From UHGV virus genome UHGV-0479438: DNA of 43,765 bases; one strand, 5' to 3'. This document shows positions 1 through 43,765 of the stretch, piece by piece. Within the stretch, counting starts at the first letter, position 1; each line of letters opens with the position of its first letter. Below the pieces are notes generated by a model. The model made no database searches, was not told the origin of the DNA, and was given only the letters and a program-made list of their open reading frames with translations. The position numbers and the translations under genes were made by a program. The stretch is from a virus.

Positions 1-72
1 GGCGGGGTTCAACTCCCCGGACAGACCATGGTGGAAAGTAAGAGGGTGCCGGTTCAACTCCGGCCGCCGCCA
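1..72 (+). other. 3' part of a tRNA-like element; paralogue of 35934..36023 whose 5' part is at the window end
   Basis: Hairpin CGGGG-TTCAACT-CCCCG, then 25-72 identical to 35976-36023. This includes the T-arm GCCGG-TTCAACT-CCGGC and the acceptor 3' strand CGCCGCC plus A. Confidence 0.5.
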
Positions 73-875: not shown

Positions 876-1043
876 AGTGATTTTCACCTCCTTTCTGTTT
901 GATAAAATGAGTATAGCATTTGACAGTACAATAAAGATGAAAGTTGGCATGAATGGATAAAAATAAGGCATGAATGGAATATGATAGTGAGATTTGATTG
1001 GGTAGAATAAACCGTGATTTCATGTGAAGATTGGAGAAAGTAT

Positions 1044-1319
1044 ATGTATACGATGAGGAGTGCATTTATTAAATGGTGTAAGCTTCATAATGAAGAGTAT
1101 AAAATCGGTGGATATATTAGATGTCCAAATTGGTTTAGGCACTATATTAGACAAAATACAGAGTGGCTCTATTGTGTCATAGATGATAGAACTAATCGCT
1201 ATTGTAATACTAAAGAAATGGATTGCAATCAGAGAAGAAGATATAAAGGATATTATCAGTTTAATATCTCTGATAATGAATTACTAAATCTACAGAGAGC
1301 AGAATGGATTAAGGGATGA
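1044..1319 (+). CDS. hypothetical protein
   Basis: In frame with track ORF 1014..1319. ATG 1044 follows GGAGAAAG. Confidence 0.4.
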   Translation: MYTMRSAFIKWCKLHNEEYKIGGYIRCPNWFRHYIRQNTEWLYCVIDDRTNRYCNTKEMDCNQRRRYKGYYQFNISDNELLNLQRAEWIKG

Positions 1320-2502: not shown

Positions 2503-2538
2503 GAGCGGTGGACACCCGCCAAGATGATTCCACCGCTC
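2503..2538 (+). promoter_or_regulatory. perfect 10-bp inverted repeat (GAGCGGTGGA / TCCACCGCTC, 16-nt loop) just upstream of the recombinase gene
   Basis: Seen directly in the sequence. No T-run follows, so it is a regulatory or recombinase-binding hairpin rather than a classic terminator. Confidence 0.4.
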
Positions 2539-2609
2539 CCGTAAATACGTCTGAGTATATTATACCTTACTCAAACGTGAAAATCAATACGAATGAGGAG
2601 GATATAATT

Positions 2610-3656
2610 ATGAGTACACAGACAATAAAAGCCGAAATCATCAACAATGTACTGGTAGCAATGTCCTTATATATCATGGAGCAGCAGACTCTTACCATTC
2701 TGCAAAATGTAATGCAGCAGGAATTGGTTAGGGTGAACATGGAAGAAATAACTACACTTCCAGTAGAAAGAAAAGATGATATAAGTCAACGGAATCAGTA
2801 CATAATACAGTTATTCCTGATTAAAAAGCGTGATTTAGCAAGAGGAACCAAAGAAAACTATCTTAATTCCATACGAAGATTACTGACAGAGATAAGCACA
2901 AAATCACTCGACCAGATGGACACCACTGATATTGATTGGTATTTATCGCGATATGAAATCAGAAATGTGTCCAGTGGAGGAATGAAAAACCAGCCTAGCA
3001 CTTATAATAACGAGCGCCGTTTTTTGTCAGCATTCTTTACATGGATGCGCCTTGAGAAGCTTATTACAGATAATCCGGTAGAGTCTATACCGGCTAAAAA
3101 AGTACCCATTAAACCAATTGATTACTACAGCCCGGAAGAATCTGCAAGATTAAGGGATGCGTGCAAAAATATCCGCGAGAGGGCCTTGCTGGAGGTACTT
3201 CGAAGTACTGGAGCCAGGATAGGGGAGATTGCAGAAATAACTCTGGACCAGATAGACATGAGAACCGGCGATATTTGGATACAGGGAGAGAAAGGCGGAA
3301 GATATCGGACTATCTATCTGGATGATGATGCGCGTCATTACTACGGCCTGTATTTGGACAGCAGGAAAGATGATTGTCCATATATGTTCCCACGCTCCAG
3401 AAAACCGTATGGAAAGATGACTACTTGTGGATTTCGGGCGATATTGAAAACCATAAGGAAAAGAGCCGGTCTAACATGTCGGGTATATCCGCATAAGTCA
3501 CGCAAGACGCTGGGAATGAATCTGAAAAACAGAGGAGTTGATATTGGGACCATACAGGAAATTATGGGCCATGCAGACCCAGGAGTTACGGCACGTTATT
3601 ATGCACAGTCTAACCCGCGCACTCTTCGTTCAGTAAGAGAAAGAGTTAATGTGTAG
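2610..3656 (+). CDS. tyrosine site-specific recombinase (second phage-integrase/Xer-family gene)
   Basis: Box I LRSTGARIGEI, box II HKSRKTLG, and a C-terminal GHADPGVTARYY with the catalytic Tyr. ATG 2610 has RBS GAGGAGGA. The track ORF begins at GTG 2508 inside the hairpin. Confidence 0.8.
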   Translation: MSTQTIKAEIINNVLVAMSLYIMEQQTLTILQNVMQQELVRVNMEEITTLPVERKDDISQRNQYIIQLFLIKKRDLARGTKENYLNSIRRLLTEISTKSLDQMDTTDIDWYLSRYEIRNVSSGGMKNQPSTYNNERRFLSAFFTWMRLEKLITDNPVESIPAKKVPIKPIDYYSPEESARLRDACKNIRERALLEVLRSTGARIGEIAEITLDQIDMRTGDIWIQGEKGGRYRTIYLDDDARHYYGLYLDSRKDDCPYMFPRSRKPYGKMTTCGFRAILKTIRKRAGLTCRVYPHKSRKTLGMNLKNRGVDIGTIQEIMGHADPGVTARYYAQSNPRTLRSVRERVNV

Positions 3657-3970: not shown

Positions 3971-4105
3971 TTAGTGCTGATAGCACTATACGGGTAACGG
4001 AATTTTTATATGCTTGGAGATTGGTTATAGAGGCCAGTAAAAAATTAACCGTTGAAGATATGGTAATGCTTGAAAAAATTGTGGAGGAAATGGAGAAATT
4101 AAAAA

Positions 4106-4452: not shown

Positions 4453-4495
4453 TAGTATAGGACTATTATACCGTGTGAAGCACAAAGAATAAGGG

Positions 4496-14916: not shown

Positions 14917-15115
14917 ATATTTGACCTCCCTCCTATAGCACATGTCCTTAAAAGAAACAGGTTCTAGCGCATAGCGTGAACAGCCTGGAGGTTGAAAAGC
15001 GGATGCAATTTCCGGCATGTGCGTTTTTGGACAAGTCAAGTCCTACAAAATGGCAACCGTTGGTGGACGGTTACACACCTACAAATAACCTAATAACGGA
15101 AAAGGAGAATCATCA

Positions 15116-15739
15116 ATGAAAACCGAAGAATTAAAAGCACAGGGATTGACAGAGGAACAGATATCATTTGTCATGGCTGAAAATGGAAAAGACCTCAAAA
15201 AGTTGCAGAAAGAAAACGACAATCTGAGCGTGGACCGGGACACCTGGAAAGAGAAAGCAGAAGCGGCAGAAACAACGCTTAAAGGCTTTGAAGGGGTTGA
15301 CCTGGAGACGATGCAGAAAGAACTGTCTGACTGGAAACAGAAAGCTACAGAAGCCGAAAAGAGCGCCCAGGCACAGCTTTATGAACGTGATTTTGCAGAT
15401 GCTCTTAAAACAGAATTTGAGGGTATTAAGTTTTCCAGCGAAGCGGCTAAACGTGCAATCATGGCAGAAGTAAAAGAGGCCGGATTAAAGCTGAAGGATG
15501 GTAAAATTCTGGGGCTGAATGACCTTATAGGCCAAATGAAAGAAAAGGATGCTTCGGCATTTATTGATGATGCGCAGCAACAGGCACAGCGGAACATGGC
15601 GAGGTTTACCGCACCATTGGGTAAGCAGAATGCGCCAGGAACTATGACACGAAAGGATATTGAAGCGATTAAAGACCCATCAGAGCGTCAGTCTGCAATC
15701 GCCAGTAACCTACATTTGTTTGGTAAAGGAGAACAGTAA
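15116..15739 (+). CDS. scaffolding protein
   Basis: Coiled-coil, K/E-rich 207-aa protein directly upstream of the major capsid gene, joined by an ATG overlap. RBS AAAGGAGAATC. Confidence 0.55.
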   Translation: MKTEELKAQGLTEEQISFVMAENGKDLKKLQKENDNLSVDRDTWKEKAEAAETTLKGFEGVDLETMQKELSDWKQKATEAEKSAQAQLYERDFADALKTEFEGIKFSSEAAKRAIMAEVKEAGLKLKDGKILGLNDLIGQMKEKDASAFIDDAQQQAQRNMARFTAPLGKQNAPGTMTRKDIEAIKDPSERQSAIASNLHLFGKGEQ

Positions 15740-29160: not shown

Positions 29161-30246
29161 TTACATACTGTTCAATTTCTCAAAGTGCTTATTAATTTTT
29201 TTATTTTGCCGGACGGTTTCAGAGTCAATTGCATTTCTGTATACGGTTTTCATGATATTATCGCTGGCCCATCCTCCCCGCTGCAAAATATATTGGTCTG
29301 GTATCCCTATGGCGTGCATAATGGATGCAGCATAATGCCGTAGGTCATGGAACCGGAAGTGGGGTATATCAATTTTTTTGAGTACACGTCCGAATCGGTG
29401 TGTGATGTAATCCGGGTTCATATCAACCAGTTTTCCTTTTTTTTCAGATATCCGGTCAATTACAAATGCTGGCATTTCTACGTCCCGCGTACTATCATCC
29501 GTTTTAGGCTGTTTGATGTACCATTGATTATCTGGCCCTTTGACCATATTGTCTCTTACATGGATTATCTTTCCGTCCACGTTCTTGTCGGTTAGGGCGC
29601 TTATTTCTCCGCGCCTGAGTGGTCCAAAGGCTGCTAGTAAAACAGCTATTTCTAAATCAGTACCTTTGATTGCCTCCAGCAGCTTTTTAATATCATTGTC
29701 ATTGGGGCAATATAAGTCAGGACGTTTTTTTTGAGGCAGCTTAACGTTTAAAGTTAATTCGGGTGCAAACATTTCCAGTGTTGGAGATAACAGACCATAG
29801 GCATTTCTTACCGTCTTTGGAGATAGTTTTTTTGCAGCTAAATTACTTACCCATATTTGCACAGATGGACTTGTCAGTTCAGAAAGCTTTTTTTGGCCAA
29901 ATGCTCCGCCGAAATACTGTCTTTGCAGACCAGTGTACCCTCTAAGCGTAGAAGGGCTTAAAACACCTCTCTTGGCGCTTAAATAGCGTTCAATAGCATC
30001 ATTGACTGTAATATCTTCTTCCTCTTCCGGTACGTTGTATTGTTCTATGGGCTTATCTTTCATGTCTAATTTCCATCTGGTAGCCATTTCCCTTGCTTCC
30101 TTGCGTGATGGAGCAACAAAGCTTTTGTAATGCCGCTTGCCTTTATCATCTGTATACAGATACACTTGCACTCGGACATTTCCAGACGGCAGTACTCCTT
30201 TTTTCTTTTTCGGGGCTTTTGTAGTCATTTCTCTTTCCTCCTTCAA
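29161..30246 (-). CDS. int: tyrosine integrase (phage integrase family)
   Basis: LLAAFGPLRRGEISAL (box I), FRFHDLRHYAAS (box II), GWASDNIMKTVYRNA (catalytic Tyr). 361 aa. Confidence 0.85.
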   Translation of the reverse strand: MKEEREMTTKAPKKKKGVLPSGNVRVQVYLYTDDKGKRHYKSFVAPSRKEAREMATRWKLDMKDKPIEQYNVPEEEEDITVNDAIERYLSAKRGVLSPSTLRGYTGLQRQYFGGAFGQKKLSELTSPSVQIWVSNLAAKKLSPKTVRNAYGLLSPTLEMFAPELTLNVKLPQKKRPDLYCPNDNDIKKLLEAIKGTDLEIAVLLAAFGPLRRGEISALTDKNVDGKIIHVRDNMVKGPDNQWYIKQPKTDDSTRDVEMPAFVIDRISEKKGKLVDMNPDYITHRFGRVLKKIDIPHFRFHDLRHYAASIMHAIGIPDQYILQRGGWASDNIMKTVYRNAIDSETVRQNKKINKHFEKLNSM

Positions 30247-32366: not shown

Positions 32367-32837
32367 TCAAAATCGCACATTTGATTCAATATTCTGTTTA
32401 AAATCAAAAAGTTTTTCTTTGTATCCTGTTAGACTAGCAAGCTGTTCTTTGTTTAACCCTGGATTTTCAACAATAATTTTATCTGATATTAATAGTTCAG
32501 CAGCAAATATATTGGCCTCTTTCTCCGGTTTGGCAAGATTAAATAAAGTACCACCAAAAAACATGCATTCACTTCCTTTATGTAATATTCCATGACCAAC
32601 TTCGTGAGCTAAGACTATATCAATGTATTTTTTATCTGTTATTTTTGAATTAATACATATGCATGGTACTCCTTTATACTCGATGTAGTAACCTGAATAT
32701 TTCCCCAAGTCATTTTTTTGTATAATCATGTCTAAATAGTCTGCAATTTCAAATGGATTTCTGGTATTGTATTTTTCGACCAGTTTCAAAACGGTATCTT
32801 TAATAATCTCCAAATTGCTACTCTCCAAAGCCATCAT
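32367..32837 (-). CDS. ImmA/IrrE-family metallopeptidase
   Basis: HEXXH zinc motif within DIVLAHEVGHGILH. Size and position immediately downstream of the XRE repressor gene. Confidence 0.7.
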   Translation of the reverse strand: MMALESSNLEIIKDTVLKLVEKYNTRNPFEIADYLDMIIQKNDLGKYSGYYIEYKGVPCICINSKITDKKYIDIVLAHEVGHGILHKGSECMFFGGTLFNLAKPEKEANIFAAELLISDKIIVENPGLNKEQLASLTGYKEKLFDFKQNIESNVRF

Positions 32838-33240
32838 GCTTTTTTTTGATAATAGCTGCCCTGCAAAGTGATAATAGCGAGTCTCTTAATAATTTGTCCT
32901 CATCTTCATCCCCTGAATAATCCTCTCCATTAAACCTCAGGACAACTGTTTCTTTGTTCCTTATGCGGTCCATAATTTTGTCAACATCAGTAATAACATT
33001 AAGCTCTTCTGATTCAGAAAGAGTGGGCTTCTTTGCTTCTGGGGCTTCCTCCTTCCCAGTCATTAGATAGTCAATAGTGACTCCAAAGTAATTTGCAATT
33101 ATTCTTCCTATTTCTGGCCCCACAAGCGAATGCTTTTTTTTCCAAGTGTAGATTGTTGATTGGGATACGCCTGTGTCTTTACAGAATTTATAAGCCGTTA
33201 TCCCAAACTTTTTCAGAAGTAGTTCAAAAACTTCGTACAT
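32818..33240 (-). CDS. XRE-family HTH repressor (cI-like)
   Basis: N-terminal HTH (LLKKFGITAYKFCKDTGVSQSTIYTWKK). Overlaps the ImmA start. Divergent from the early promoter. Confidence 0.7.
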   Translation of the reverse strand: MYEVFELLLKKFGITAYKFCKDTGVSQSTIYTWKKKHSLVGPEIGRIIANYFGVTIDYLMTGKEEAPEAKKPTLSESEELNVITDVDKIMDRIRNKETVVLRFNGEDYSGDEDEDKLLRDSLLSLCRAAIIKKKHDGFGE

Positions 33241-33296: not shown

Positions 33297-33325
33297 TTGA
33301 CTACCTCGGTGTATAGTGGTATAGT
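33297..33325 (+). promoter_or_regulatory. rightward early promoter TTGACT-17-TATAGT
   Basis: Consensus-like hexamers with 17-nt spacing. Overlapped by the palindrome GTATAGTATATCTATAC. Confidence 0.45.
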
Positions 33326-33335
33326 ATATCTATAC
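33319..33335. promoter_or_regulatory. 17-bp palindrome GTATAG-TATAT-CTATAC overlapping the -10 (operator candidate)
   Basis: Arms are exact reverse complements. Shares a GTAT...ATAC frame with the 33257 palindrome. Confidence 0.4.
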
Positions 33336-33527: not shown

Positions 33528-33854
33528 TCATAGCTGCTGTGACAACCATTGTAATACGTTTATTACTATATTGGTTAGGATGGTCACAATTATAGGACAA
33601 AGTACAGAATCAAACCTATGTTCCGAATGATAATTGATGTACTCATATCCAATGCTATGAACTCTGTAGTATTCCGTAGGACGTGGGCGTCCGTTTTCGG
33701 TTAGGATGTTTTCAATTAAAGATTTTTTGACGAGAACTTTGTAATGCTTGTGAGAATCTATATCAATTATACGAACCCGTTTTCTGATTCTGATATGGGT
33801 CAATGCAATTTTATCGCAAAAAGAAATATGAATTGTACTTACATCAATAGCCAT
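33528..33854 (-). CDS. doubtful hypothetical protein
   Basis: ORF antisense to the presumed early transcript. No clear RBS. Confidence 0.3.
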   Translation of the reverse strand: MAIDVSTIHISFCDKIALTHIRIRKRVRIIDIDSHKHYKVLVKKSLIENILTENGRPRPTEYYRVHSIGYEYINYHSEHRFDSVLCPIIVTILTNIVINVLQWLSQQL

Positions 33855-35933: not shown

Positions 35934-36023
35934 GGCGGTGTGTGGCACACAGGTCCAGGTTCGATTCCTGGCATAACCATGGTGGAAAGTAAGAGGGTGC
36001 CGGTTCAACTCCGGCCGCCGCCA
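35934..36023 (+). ncRNA. 90-nt tRNA-like element with a 7-bp acceptor stem and canonical T-arm but a non-canonical core
   Basis: 5' GGCGGTG pairs with 3' CGCCGCC (one G-U), discriminator A. T-arm is GCCGG-TTCAACT-CCGGC. There is a second T-arm-like hairpin, CCAGG-TTCGATT-CCTGG, and a 27-nt segment that I cannot fold as a standard cloverleaf. Confidence 0.5.
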
Positions 36024-40220: not shown

Positions 40221-40295
40221 GGTCAGATTGCTAATATGTCACGATATACTTTCTGACCCTGGGCCGGGACCTATCAAACCTCCTTTACCCGGCCC
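40221..40295 (+). promoter_or_regulatory. two consecutive hairpins (GGTCAGA...TCTGACC and GGGCCGGG...CCCGGCCC)
   Basis: 7-bp and 8-bp perfect stems. The second loop contains CCTCCTTT, complementary to the downstream RBS GGAGGG. No T-run. Confidence 0.35.
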
Positions 40296-40310
40296 GAAAG
40301 GAGGGATTAT

Positions 40311-40682
40311 TTGAAGAATAAGCGAATTGTTAGTGAAGATGTTCAAGCAAGGGTATATAATGCGCTACTTGTAGGTAAAGAGAATGCATTGAACAGAGAT
40401 GAACTGGTATCCAAGATAGGGGAATCGGATGGAGATATACGAACCGCCATTGAGATATTAAGGCACGATAAAGTGATTCTTACATTGCCAACAGGGAAAG
40501 GTTACTATATACCCCGTGACGATGCACAGGGACGGCAAGAAACAGAGAAATGGCTTGTCAGCCAAAATAGGACTAAGAGTATAAAGGCAGCAGAACGTGG
40601 CGCACAGCTGTTTATAAGCCGGAATAAGAAAAAAGATAAAGGTATTCCCGGTCAGATTAGTATGTTTGGAGCTGGGTTATGA
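40311..40682 (+). CDS. hypothetical DNA-binding (winged-helix-like) protein
   Basis: TTG start after AAAGGAGGGATTA. Confidence 0.4.
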   Translation: MKNKRIVSEDVQARVYNALLVGKENALNRDELVSKIGESDGDIRTAIEILRHDKVILTLPTGKGYYIPRDDAQGRQETEKWLVSQNRTKSIKAAERGAQLFISRNKKKDKGIPGQISMFGAGL

Positions 40683-41338
40683 GAGATAGTGTTGTATTTT
40701 ATCGCAGCTTCTGGGAAGCCATTAAGCAGCTGCCGGAAAAAGAAAGATTGGAATCTCTTACAGCAATCTTAGAATATGGACTTGATGAAATAGAGCCTAA
40801 ATCGGCAGGTGTTGCATCGGCAATGTTTTTAATGGCAAAACCACAAATTGATGCGAATAATCGCAGATACCAAAACGGAACTAAGGGCGGTAGGCCAGTA
40901 ACCAAACCAGAACCAAACAATAACCTAGAATCAAATTATAATAAACCAAGTGATAACCAAACCATAACCAAAGCAAAACCTAAGGAAAAGGATAATGTAA
41001 AGGAAAAGGATAATGTAAATGATAATAATAAAAAAACATTTACTCCACCTTCGGTGTCGGATGTGTCCGATTATTGCACTTTGAATGGATATGGCATTGA
41101 CCCAGAGAGTTTTGTTGATTTTTATGCATCAAAGGGATGGATGGTTGGGAAAAACAAGATGAAGGACTGGAAAGCCTCGGTAAGGACCTGGGTACGAAGC
41201 CAGCGGCAGGAATCGACCGCCAAAGGTAGTAAAAATCAGTTTCACAATTTTGACCAGCGAGATATGGACTATGATGCATTGATGTTAAAACAGGTAAAAG
41301 ACTGGGTAGGGGAGGTACAGGATGAAGGAAATACATAA
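40679..41338 (+). CDS. phage replisome-organiser-like / replication initiation protein
   Basis: N-terminal MRDSVVFYRSFWEAIKQLPEKERLESLTAILEYGL resembles the conserved phage replication N-terminal domain. The low-complexity middle of the gene contains DNA direct repeats. Confidence 0.45.
   Translation: MRDSVVFYRSFWEAIKQLPEKERLESLTAILEYGLDEIEPKSAGVASAMFLMAKPQIDANNRRYQNGTKGGRPVTKPEPNNNLESNYNKPSDNQTITKAKPKEKDNVKEKDNVNDNNKKTFTPPSVSDVSDYCTLNGYGIDPESFVDFYASKGWMVGKNKMKDWKASVRTWVRSQRQESTAKGSKNQFHNFDQRDMDYDALMLKQVKDWVGEVQDEGNT
40983..41018 (+). repeat. tandem 18-bp direct repeat AAGGAAAAGGATAATGTA x2, plus upstream AACCAAACC-type repeats
   Basis: Seen directly inside the replisome-organiser ORF. Iteron-like. 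Confidence 0.4.
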
Positions 41339-41576
41339 GCGAATACTTGATTATATCAAACGCTATTTGTCCGAACATAATTATCCTCCCACTACAAGAG
41401 AAATAGGAGATGGGGTTGGATATACATCCAGCGCCACCATATGGGGACATTTACGTGATATGAGAGAAATCGGATTGATTGACTATGTGGATGAATGCCC
41501 AAGGACCATCACAATACCTGGATGCCATTATGTTTTTGGAAAAGGAGATGTTGCTGAGTGCCAGATAACAAAATAA
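41322..41576 (+). CDS. LexA N-terminal DNA-binding-domain-only protein (no S24 peptidase domain)
   Basis: MKEIHKRILDYIKRYLSEHNYPPTTREIGDGVGYTSSATIWGHLRDMREIGLI aligns motif-for-motif with the LexA winged-HTH (YPPS/TxREIG...SSSTVxxHL...KGLI). Only 84 aa. Confidence 0.65.
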   Translation: MKEIHKRILDYIKRYLSEHNYPPTTREIGDGVGYTSSATIWGHLRDMREIGLIDYVDECPRTITIPGCHYVFGKGDVAECQITK

Positions 41577-41803
41577 AGAGTCAGCATAGTGACAATTCAG
41601 AACGCCAAAGAATGGCAGCGATAAAAGATATGGAAAAATATCCATCACCTATGACGAAAGCATTTCTCCGACCGGCATATGATAGGACTGAAATATGTCC
41701 TGATTTTTCTAGGCGTCCAAGTAATCAAAACACGTATTTAGCGGAGAAAGGAGTGGGACATGATAAAGATAGCAAGGCTGGCCACAGCCCATATGTTCGA
41801 TGA
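41558..41803 (+). CDS. doubtful small ORF
   Basis: Overlaps both neighbours. Confidence 0.3.
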   Translation: MPDNKIKSQHSDNSERQRMAAIKDMEKYPSPMTKAFLRPAYDRTEICPDFSRRPSNQNTYLAEKGVGHDKDSKAGHSPYVR

Positions 41804-43393: not shown

Positions 43394-43747
43394 TGCTTAT
43401 AACGCAGCAGCGCATGTGTCTATGGAGAGATAATGGAGGACCATACGGCCAGGGGTTCCGGTCTGGCGCACATCCACTATATCGGCTTTTAGAAGGGGCA
43501 TTTGGATGTAACCCGGATATGTTTTTTGAAAGCTACATATAAGGAAGAAAAAGAAAAACACCGAGTTACCACCCGGTGCTCTGCAGGACGACAGAAGCAA
43601 CTATCGCCAATACAGTATTAATTTGACCGTTTTTATTGTACCACGCCTGAATGATGATTGCAATATGAAATCTGTGTCCAGAAAGGTAAAAAACGCAGAC
43701 TTTTCTCTGAAAATATGTTGATATAGAATAAAATTTAAGGTTTAGTG

Positions 43748-43765
43748 GCGGTGTGTGGTACACAG
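43748..43765 (+). other. 5' part of a tRNA-like element; continues at window position 1 if the sequence is circular
   Basis: GGCGGTGTGTGGTACACAG matches 35934-35952 with one substitution. The upstream 15 nt are also similar to those upstream of the internal copy. Confidence 0.45.

Follow-up and report, generated by a model that had tools for sequence, protein, structure and literature searches.

Stand-alone LexA-type DNA-binding domains form a large and already known class of phage regulators. Cellular LexA (TIGR00498; PF01726 plus PF00717) dimerises through its C-terminal domain, and its N-terminal fragment retains weak operator binding and is degraded in cells by ClpXP. In Firmicute siphophages, late-gene activators of the RinA, ArpU, LtrC and Alt type are encoded upstream of terminase, the usual site of such activators. 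The one characterized member of the stand-alone family that we found is gp6 of the tectivirus GIL01, a truncated LexA homologue that activates the late promoter P3 from its own palindrome (GaCACAnnTGTGaC, centred at −43.5) and requires Lys38 for operator binding (PMC6182141; a further source on gp6 is PMC11511902). Here we describe LexAD, our name for a stand-alone LexA-type DNA-binding protein of virus genome UHGV-0479438, whose 43,765-nt sequence (the whole stretch analysed, referred to as the window) is that of a temperate tailed phage. LexAD is an ordinary LexA-type domain that a preliminary description of this DNA had recognised correctly, while over-reaching in its guess at function. We tentatively favour, at somewhat short of an even chance, a transcription regulator that is insensitive to RecA, directed at phage DNA and made together with the replication genes.

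LexAD and gp6 of GIL01/Bam35 (Betatectivirus) are both stand-alone LexA winged helices without S24 (84 and 66 amino acids, respectively) and have PHROG 3502 as their common best match. Their top three PHROGs are identical (for LexAD, 3502 at E = 3.3e-11, 362, labelled 'transcriptional repressor', at 1.9e-8 and 24920 at 9.2e-8; for gp6, 3502 at 1.8e-21, 24920 at 1.5e-6 and 362 at 2.8e-5). Each gene lies at the 3′ end of an early replication module (gp6 directly after the DNA polymerase gene) and is followed by a small gene, and both phages are temperate with Firmicute hosts. The two systems differ in that GIL01 is a linear tectiviral plasmid prophage, whereas the present phage is an integrating tailed phage of Lachnospiraceae; in that GIL01 lysogeny uses host LexA and dinBoxes, whereas the present phage has an ImmR/ImmA-type switch and no SOS boxes; and in their small downstream proteins, which are unrelated.

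LexAD is a LexA-type winged helix

The LexA motifs YPPTTREIG, GYTSSATIWGHL and IGLI are all present in LexAD, and Pfam PF01726 (LexA_DNA_bind) matches residues 6–62 at profile positions 9–65 of 65 (E = 3.5e-14, 52.8 bits; cut-off, 23.7). A search of Protein Data Bank (PDB) sequences with LexAD returned LexA chains only (best, 8s7g; E = 7e-7). The AlphaFold2 model, built on 99 aligned relatives (mean predicted local distance difference test score (pLDDT), 86), consists of three helices followed by a β-hairpin wing, and its nine best Foldseek matches in the PDB were all LexA, led by DNA-bound Escherichia coli LexA (3jso_B; root mean square deviation of 1.1 Å over 65 columns); the fold also matches 1lea and 3k2z. 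Given the open reading frame (ORF), the motifs and the Pfam, PDB and Foldseek matches, the LexA-type winged helix-turn-helix that had been proposed at 41322–41576 is confirmed, and the assignment of LexAD as a LexA DNA-binding domain is secure.

The family alignment has a nearly invariant Ser at residue 36, before the predicted recognition helix, and a nearly invariant Arg at residue 61 in the wing (Table 1). The family consensus from the wing into the tail is PRxIxxPG, and LexAD alleles show three tail types; residues 67–84 are modelled with low confidence (tail pLDDT blocks of 64 and 51). LexAD shares with cellular LexA the N-terminal fold and a similar recognition helix, but lacks its S24 peptidase, Ala-Gly site and dimerisation domain, and is encoded by a phage within a replication operon.

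An intact protein without a peptidase

Pfam detected no S24 domain in LexAD itself, in any ORF between it and the window end, or within the initial 3.6 kb of the window. When the C-terminal domains of four S24-bearing relatives were compared with the six frames of the window by tblastn, only noise was obtained (E ≥ 0.5), none of it near 41.5–43.8 kb, and full-length LexAs aligned to the window solely through residues 1–81, at 41322–41561. Neither of the dipeptides of autocleavage sites (Ala-Gly or Cys-Gly) occurs in the 84-residue sequence. The lexA equivalog model TIGR00498 was matched at model positions 8–70 of 203 only, with 49.2 bits against a cut-off of 110.95. With both S24 and the cleavage site absent, RecA* would be unable to remove LexAD by autocleavage. 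On these two points, the lack of an autoprotease domain and the resistance to RecA*, the preliminary description was right, and the frameshifted or misassembled S24 continuation that it had considered was looked for with both Pfam and tblastn and was not found.

Only its short length and a frameshift inside the gene of one relative (L040) speak for LexAD being what is left of a complete LexA or CI-type repressor after truncation or frameshift, or a product of misassembly. The gene is carried by ten protein clusters and 36 viral loci among close relatives, with a conserved stop codon and full-length products of 83–98 amino acids (two shorter clusters are fragments). Pairwise dN/dS among eight alleles is 0.06–0.24, showing that LexAD is under purifying selection, and the DNA directly 3′ of it is a different conserved protein-coding gene. 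With no S24 in any frame of the window, these observations rule out a broken LexA, to which we assign a negligible probability.

A clade of stand-alone LexA-type domains

A profile search for relatives of LexAD, which covered 1.84 billion cluster representatives, retrieved 7247 representatives at E ≤ 0.001. PF01726 was present in all of the best 150, most of which are 63–130 amino acids long, and S24 in only 5, leaving 145 of the 150 S24-less. True LexAs score far lower and appear far down the list. LexAD is therefore one of a large, old clade of LexA-type winged helices without S24, and not a recent truncation of a host LexA. With PF01726 as its sole domain and a length within the range of approximately 60–130 amino acids, LexAD is of the stand-alone LexA_DNA_bind type. 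Megablast of the LexAD region against GenBank phages gave no match. In some relatives (P0014, P0018, P0023, P0027 and P0033) a single chain holds two to four LexA DNA-binding domains in tandem, which suggests that the LexA-type unit acts in pairs; the chain of one relative (1076 amino acids) includes an S24 peptidase and an extended N-terminal region besides two LexA DNA-binding domains.

Comparable proteins are found in Bacillus phages 11143, Wrath and BMBtp15 and in Psychrobacillus phage PVJ1 (67–82 amino acids, PF01726 only, 42–48% identity to LexAD), and in the three Bacillus phages an overlapping small gene (approximately 82 amino acids) follows, as it does here. Their public annotations read 'LexA DNA-binding domain protein' (11143), 'repressor protein' (BMBtp15) and 'lexA' (PVJ1), and we found no functional study of the 11143, Wrath, BMBtp15 or PVJ1 proteins. 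Unlike LexAD, the 11143 and Wrath proteins have the helix ASSSTVHGHL, as in Firmicute-type LexA (BMBtp15 has HMHL), and the Bacillus phage genes lie near recombinase and lysis genes. The Bacillus phage proteins would be better candidates than LexAD for non-cleavable LexA mimics.

A fixed place at the end of the replication module

Related prophages were found in Dorea and Enterocloster genomes, which points to gut Lachnospiraceae as hosts. The phage encodes a tyrosine integrase and a lysogeny switch of the ImmR/ImmA type, in which the XRE repressor is not of the self-cleaving CI/LexA type and lacks an S24 cleavage domain for RecA* to act on. The rightward early region encodes Rha, a RecT-like protein (PHROG 7838) and an HNHc_6 nuclease, and then the replication module, four overlapping genes in the order wHTH123, DUF6291, LexAD and a small ORF, an order that recurs in approximately 30 loci. 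The last 17 nt of the DUF6291 gene overlap the start of LexAD, which suggests translational coupling.

LexAD closes the module across three cassette types: DUF6291 alone; a version with a 31%-identical gene plus a DnaC/DnaI-like helicase loader in place of the DUF6291 gene, and with LexAD after the loader; and a third type. It stands directly 3′ of the DUF6291 gene in all 12 loci that have a close homologue and enough downstream DNA, and in 4 of 65 loci with distant homologues, each time immediately downstream (4 lineages). The earlier placement of the gene immediately after a replisome organiser thus holds as to position, LexAD being located where the replication module ends; its upstream neighbour is a DUF6291 gene, for which the role of organiser is plausible only. 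Synonymous changes have reached saturation among LexAD alleles (dS > 1), whereas the flanking genes are 95–99% identical, indicating that LexAD has been exchanged independently of its neighbours. LexAD is therefore an accessory gene that can be exchanged but keeps a constant location, the 3′ end of replication modules.

The small downstream ORF encodes 60–88 amino acids in most relatives (for example, L021 10254..10454), varies chiefly at third codon positions (DNA alignment of 17 loci) and has been called independently in public assemblies (26 protein clusters); it has no Pfam, PHROG or NCBIfam match. Its nucleotide identity is 90–92% where the LexAD protein is only approximately 72% identical, so that it is better conserved than LexAD. 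We rejected a two-gene module like gp6/gp7, given that the small ORF is unlike both GIL01 gp7 and the small genes that follow the Bacillus phage proteins, and that in L044–L048 it comes after the replication module with no LexAD gene before it.

A second LexA-domain-only type, 31–54% identical to LexAD, occurs in related gut phages (L044 11496..11771; L020 9273..9533), where it adjoins pre-terminase recombinase genes two genes upstream of the small terminase gene. In L044–L046, a more distant phage group, this paralogue has 91 amino acids; L020 holds both this copy and a replication-module copy. The position of the L044–L046 paralogue is that of the RinA, ArpU, LtrC and Alt activators, with which LexAD would also share, by analogy of timing, being a small phage DNA-binding protein made before the late genes. 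Those activators differ in having a sigma-like helix-turn-helix instead of a LexA winged helix, and LexAD of the window is not adjacent to terminase but lies approximately 7 kb upstream of it (a distance that assumes a circular genome and runs through the window ends). The interval from LexAD to terminase yielded no late activator of the ArpU/RinA type.

Table 1 Features of the LexAD locus, of the phage that carries it and of related loci (coordinates refer to the window unless a locus is named)
Feature	Coordinates	Strand	Details
LexAD, stand-alone LexA-type DNA-binding protein	41322..41576 (stop codon included)	+	ATG start; 84 amino acids
Shine–Dalgarno sequence GGGAGG	41310..41315	+	6 nt 5′ of the LexAD ATG, within the 3′ end of the upstream gene; from sequence
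Winged helix-turn-helix core, residues 6–62	41337..41507	+	Pfam match; Foldseek against 3jso
Predicted recognition helix, residues 37–49 (SATIWGHLRDMRE)	41430..41468	+	DSSP on the AlphaFold2 model; alignment with LexAs and gp6
β-hairpin wing, residues 54–64	41481..41513	+	Conserved PRTI motif; AlphaFold2 strands 54–56 and 59–64
C-terminal tail, residues 65–84	41514..41573	+	PG-x-HY motif, then an allele-specific low-confidence stretch
wHTH123, first module gene	40311..40682	+	123 amino acids; weak winged-helix matches, PHROG 2113; synteny in at least 30 loci
DUF6291 gene (putative replication initiator/organiser)	40679..41338	+	Pfam PF19808, E = 1.5e-19
Small conserved gene	41558..41803	+	GTG start; 81 amino acids; overlaps the LexAD stop
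Inverted repeat GGTCAGA-N24-TCTGACC	40221..40258	.	Flanks a weak promoter-like stretch upstream of wHTH123
Tyrosine integrase	29161..30246	-	
Lysogeny switch, ImmR/ImmA type	32367..33240	-	XRE repressor adjoining an M78 (IrrE/ImmA-like) metalloprotease
LexA-domain-only proteins of Bacillus phages	L049 4974..5222 (11143); L130 928..1152 (BMBtp15); L131 3971..4219 (Wrath)		74–82 amino acids

Proposed role and alternatives

As a phage-directed regulator, LexAD would be produced along with the replication proteins, as the product of the third of four overlapping genes, and its level would climb after the early replication operon switches on. Helix 3 and the wing would bind a site in phage DNA, probably as two copies on a repeated site given that the LexA dimerisation domain is missing, and binding would alter the transcription of other phage genes. 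By analogy with gp6, the likeliest effect would be to help to switch on later genes, and the alternative would be to shut down the early operon; LexAD probably does one or the other, and an activator of late genes specifically is less likely than a phage-directed regulator in general. In the absence of S24 and of a cleavage site, its activity would depend on the amount produced and not on DNA damage. This reading is favoured by the LexA fold, the S24-free window, the selection on the protein, the PHROGs shared with gp6, the fixed position in the module, the pre-terminase paralogue, the failure to detect an ArpU/RinA-type activator ahead of terminase and the relatives with tandem domains.

Several observations weigh against it. 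Searches of the intergenic regions for palindromes and repeats (arms of 5–7 nt, spacers of 0–10 nt) revealed no repeated operator family. The gp6-type box GaCACAnnTGTGaC itself was not found in the window and is not enriched there (2 sites at 2 mismatches versus 0.93 expected, neither in a promoter-like place). LexAD is only 28% identical to gp6, and the essential Lys38 of gp6 is Ala38 in LexAD and Ser in close relatives. It is also an accessory, as 61 of the 65 phages with distant DUF6291 homologues have no LexAD within 3 kb. Among the family, Bacillus siphophage members bear a 'repressor' annotation and lie in lysogeny-type neighbourhoods, and the PVJ1 copy, unlike LexAD, heads a dinB/YolD operon; with contexts so varied, family membership does not fix the role. 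The only operator-like candidate is the inverted repeat at 40221–40258, the sole such pair in the window and 93–100% identical in most related loci, which may be a site for LexAD, for the product of the first gene of the operon or for neither of them.

The same repeat, conserved at the promoter-like region of the module, would suit a replication accessory that binds the origin or the promoter of the replication operon and, with the DUF6291 protein, promotes or restrains initiation, a role that we regard as unlikely. It is also consistent with the 17-nt overlap and unbroken association with close DUF6291 homologues, with LexAD closing the module in every cassette type and with a weak structural resemblance to the N-terminal winged helix of DnaD (Foldseek, E ~0.02). 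However, LexAD persists next to a 31%-identical or an unrelated initiator, which counters a specific protein partner, most phages with distant DUF6291 homologues do without it, its alleles have been exchanged independently of the flanking genes and its paralogues lie far from replication genes; the first gene of the operon, possibly a winged helix too (weak matches), could equally use the repeat. Even less support attaches to a repressor of immunity or exclusion acting on genes of this or competing phages. PHROG 362 and the lysogeny-type neighbourhoods of the homologues in 11143, Wrath and BMBtp15 agree with such a role, but 'repressor' labels are annotations and not tested functions, an XRE repressor with an ImmA metalloprotease is already present near the integrase and the gene is on the lytic strand within the replication operon, so that we consider it very improbable.

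The preliminary description had proposed a dominant-negative or super-repressor role, in which a cleavage-resistant domain occupies host SOS boxes or phage operators of LexA type. Phage operators of this type are not borne out by the search of the window for Cheo/SOS-box palindromes that it had suggested. No perfect SOS (Cheo) box (GAACNNNNGTTC; GAAC-N4-GTTC, 0.39 expected) occurs in the window, and relaxed boxes (CGAACNNNNGTTCG, ≤2 mismatches) number 3 against 7.5 expected; approximately 630 kb of related loci together with the window contain 5 perfect GAAC-N4-GTTC boxes versus 7.8 expected, showing no enrichment. Of the relaxed sites, AAACCTATGTTC at 33612 is shared with relatives, but within homologous switch-region DNA. 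Any LexA-type target would thus have to be in the host, where an uncleavable LexAD could occupy LexA operators and keep SOS genes repressed during phage growth or lysogeny, which we find distinctly unlikely; a non-cleavable mimic acting on the SOS boxes of the Lachnospiraceae host during phage replication is more doubtful again.

What recommends host operators is the protein itself. Its DNA-binding domain is 38–44% identical to those of full-length LexAs, and its recognition helix, SSATIWGHL (SSSTIWGYL in relatives), matches SSSTVHGHL of Firmicute LexA at 6 of 9 positions, compared with only 3 of 9 for gp6. However, STSTV..HL is the consensus of the entire S24-less family, which makes the likeness of the helix a family trait and not a sign of shared specificity. 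The differing positions 38 and 41 align with Asn41 and Glu44 of E. coli LexA, and the family-variable position 42 with Glu45 (positions 41–42 are W-G here), all three of which we take to be base-contacting residues in E. coli LexA. Without the dimerisation domain of LexA, mixed-dimer poisoning would be unavailable to LexAD, leaving operator competition only, and a single domain of this kind would bind weakly. The gene lies in a lytic-cycle operon outside the lysogeny module, in a phage whose switch is of the ImmR/ImmA type, and the nearest relatives of the protein are almost all S24-less, with true LexAs far lower. The box of gp6, moreover, differs from that of LexA (PMC6182141). With no excess of boxes, membership of an S24-less clade and a gp6 counterpart that activates a late promoter, the proposed super-repressor or dominant-negative role is unsupported.

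Further sites and elements in the window

Immediately 3′ of the inverted repeat (within the stretch 40221..40300), the 5′ untranslated region contains a GC-rich hairpin at 40260–40296 (GGGCCGGG/CCCGGCCC) whose loop contains CCTCCTTT, a complement of the ribosome-binding site AAAGGAGG of the next gene. Both sides of the stem are altered together in L028 and L038 (GGGACGGG/CCCGTCCC), and its folding energy is no better than that of shuffled sequence (z = −1.26). Two other candidate operators were rejected: a perfect palindrome at 3972–3988, which is contained in a small overlapping ORF and which relatives lack, and a perfect 12-nt direct repeat (GGCATGAATGGA, two copies 21 nt apart, 946..978 (+)), which was found in no related locus examined. 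The direct repeat is in the divergent intergenic region that precedes the ORF at 1014, with a TATGAT hexamer shortly 3′ of it. Palindromes of the form GTATA...TATAC occur at 33319..33335, 4455..4471 and 1040..1051 (four arm pairs versus approximately 1.25 expected); one is over the −10 element of the strongest early promoter-like site, and the others are in the short interval preceding the small terminase gene and at the start of ORF 1014.

A tRNA-like element of approximately 90 nt is present in two copies, at 35934..36023 (+) and at 43747..43765 joined to 1..71 across the window ends, and the splitting of the second copy suggests a circularly permuted genome. Its acceptor stem spans 7 bp, its T arm is canonical and its 3′ discriminator base is A; the 51-nt middle is irregular and includes a second T-arm-like hairpin that shows paired changes between the copies (CCAGG/CCTGG versus CGGGG/CCCCG). 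The element scores 26.0 bits with the Rfam tRNA model, just below the gathering score of 29, and ARAGORN calls neither copy; it is conserved in related phages. The gene at 15116..15739 is preceded by two known phage-associated RNAs, RAGATH-21 (83.5 bits; 14937..15023 (+)) and GP20-b (40.9 bits; 15029..15092 (+)), each of which exceeds the gathering score of its Rfam model. The integrase is not the only tyrosine recombinase of the phage: another (Phage_integrase, E = 1.3e-30) is encoded on the lytic strand at 2508..3656 (+), just upstream of the terminase region, and is kept in many relatives together with the 100-amino-acid gene that follows it.

Implications

If LexAD did bind host SOS boxes, it would represent a simple viral route to uncouple the SOS response from DNA damage: host genes for repair and mutagenesis, or SOS-inducible prophages that the host carries, would remain off irrespective of RecA or, in a weaker version, competition with host LexA at a subset of boxes would rewire part of the SOS regulon of common gut bacteria. 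As a regulator directed at phage DNA, which is the reading that we favour, LexAD is a protein of the gp6 kind in tailed temperate phages of the abundant Lachnospiraceae of the human gut, fixed at the end of the replication operon. Should it time the late genes, a regulatory design described for a small group of tectiviruses would extend to many gut phages, and LexAD would offer a handle on the order of gene expression in these poorly studied phages.

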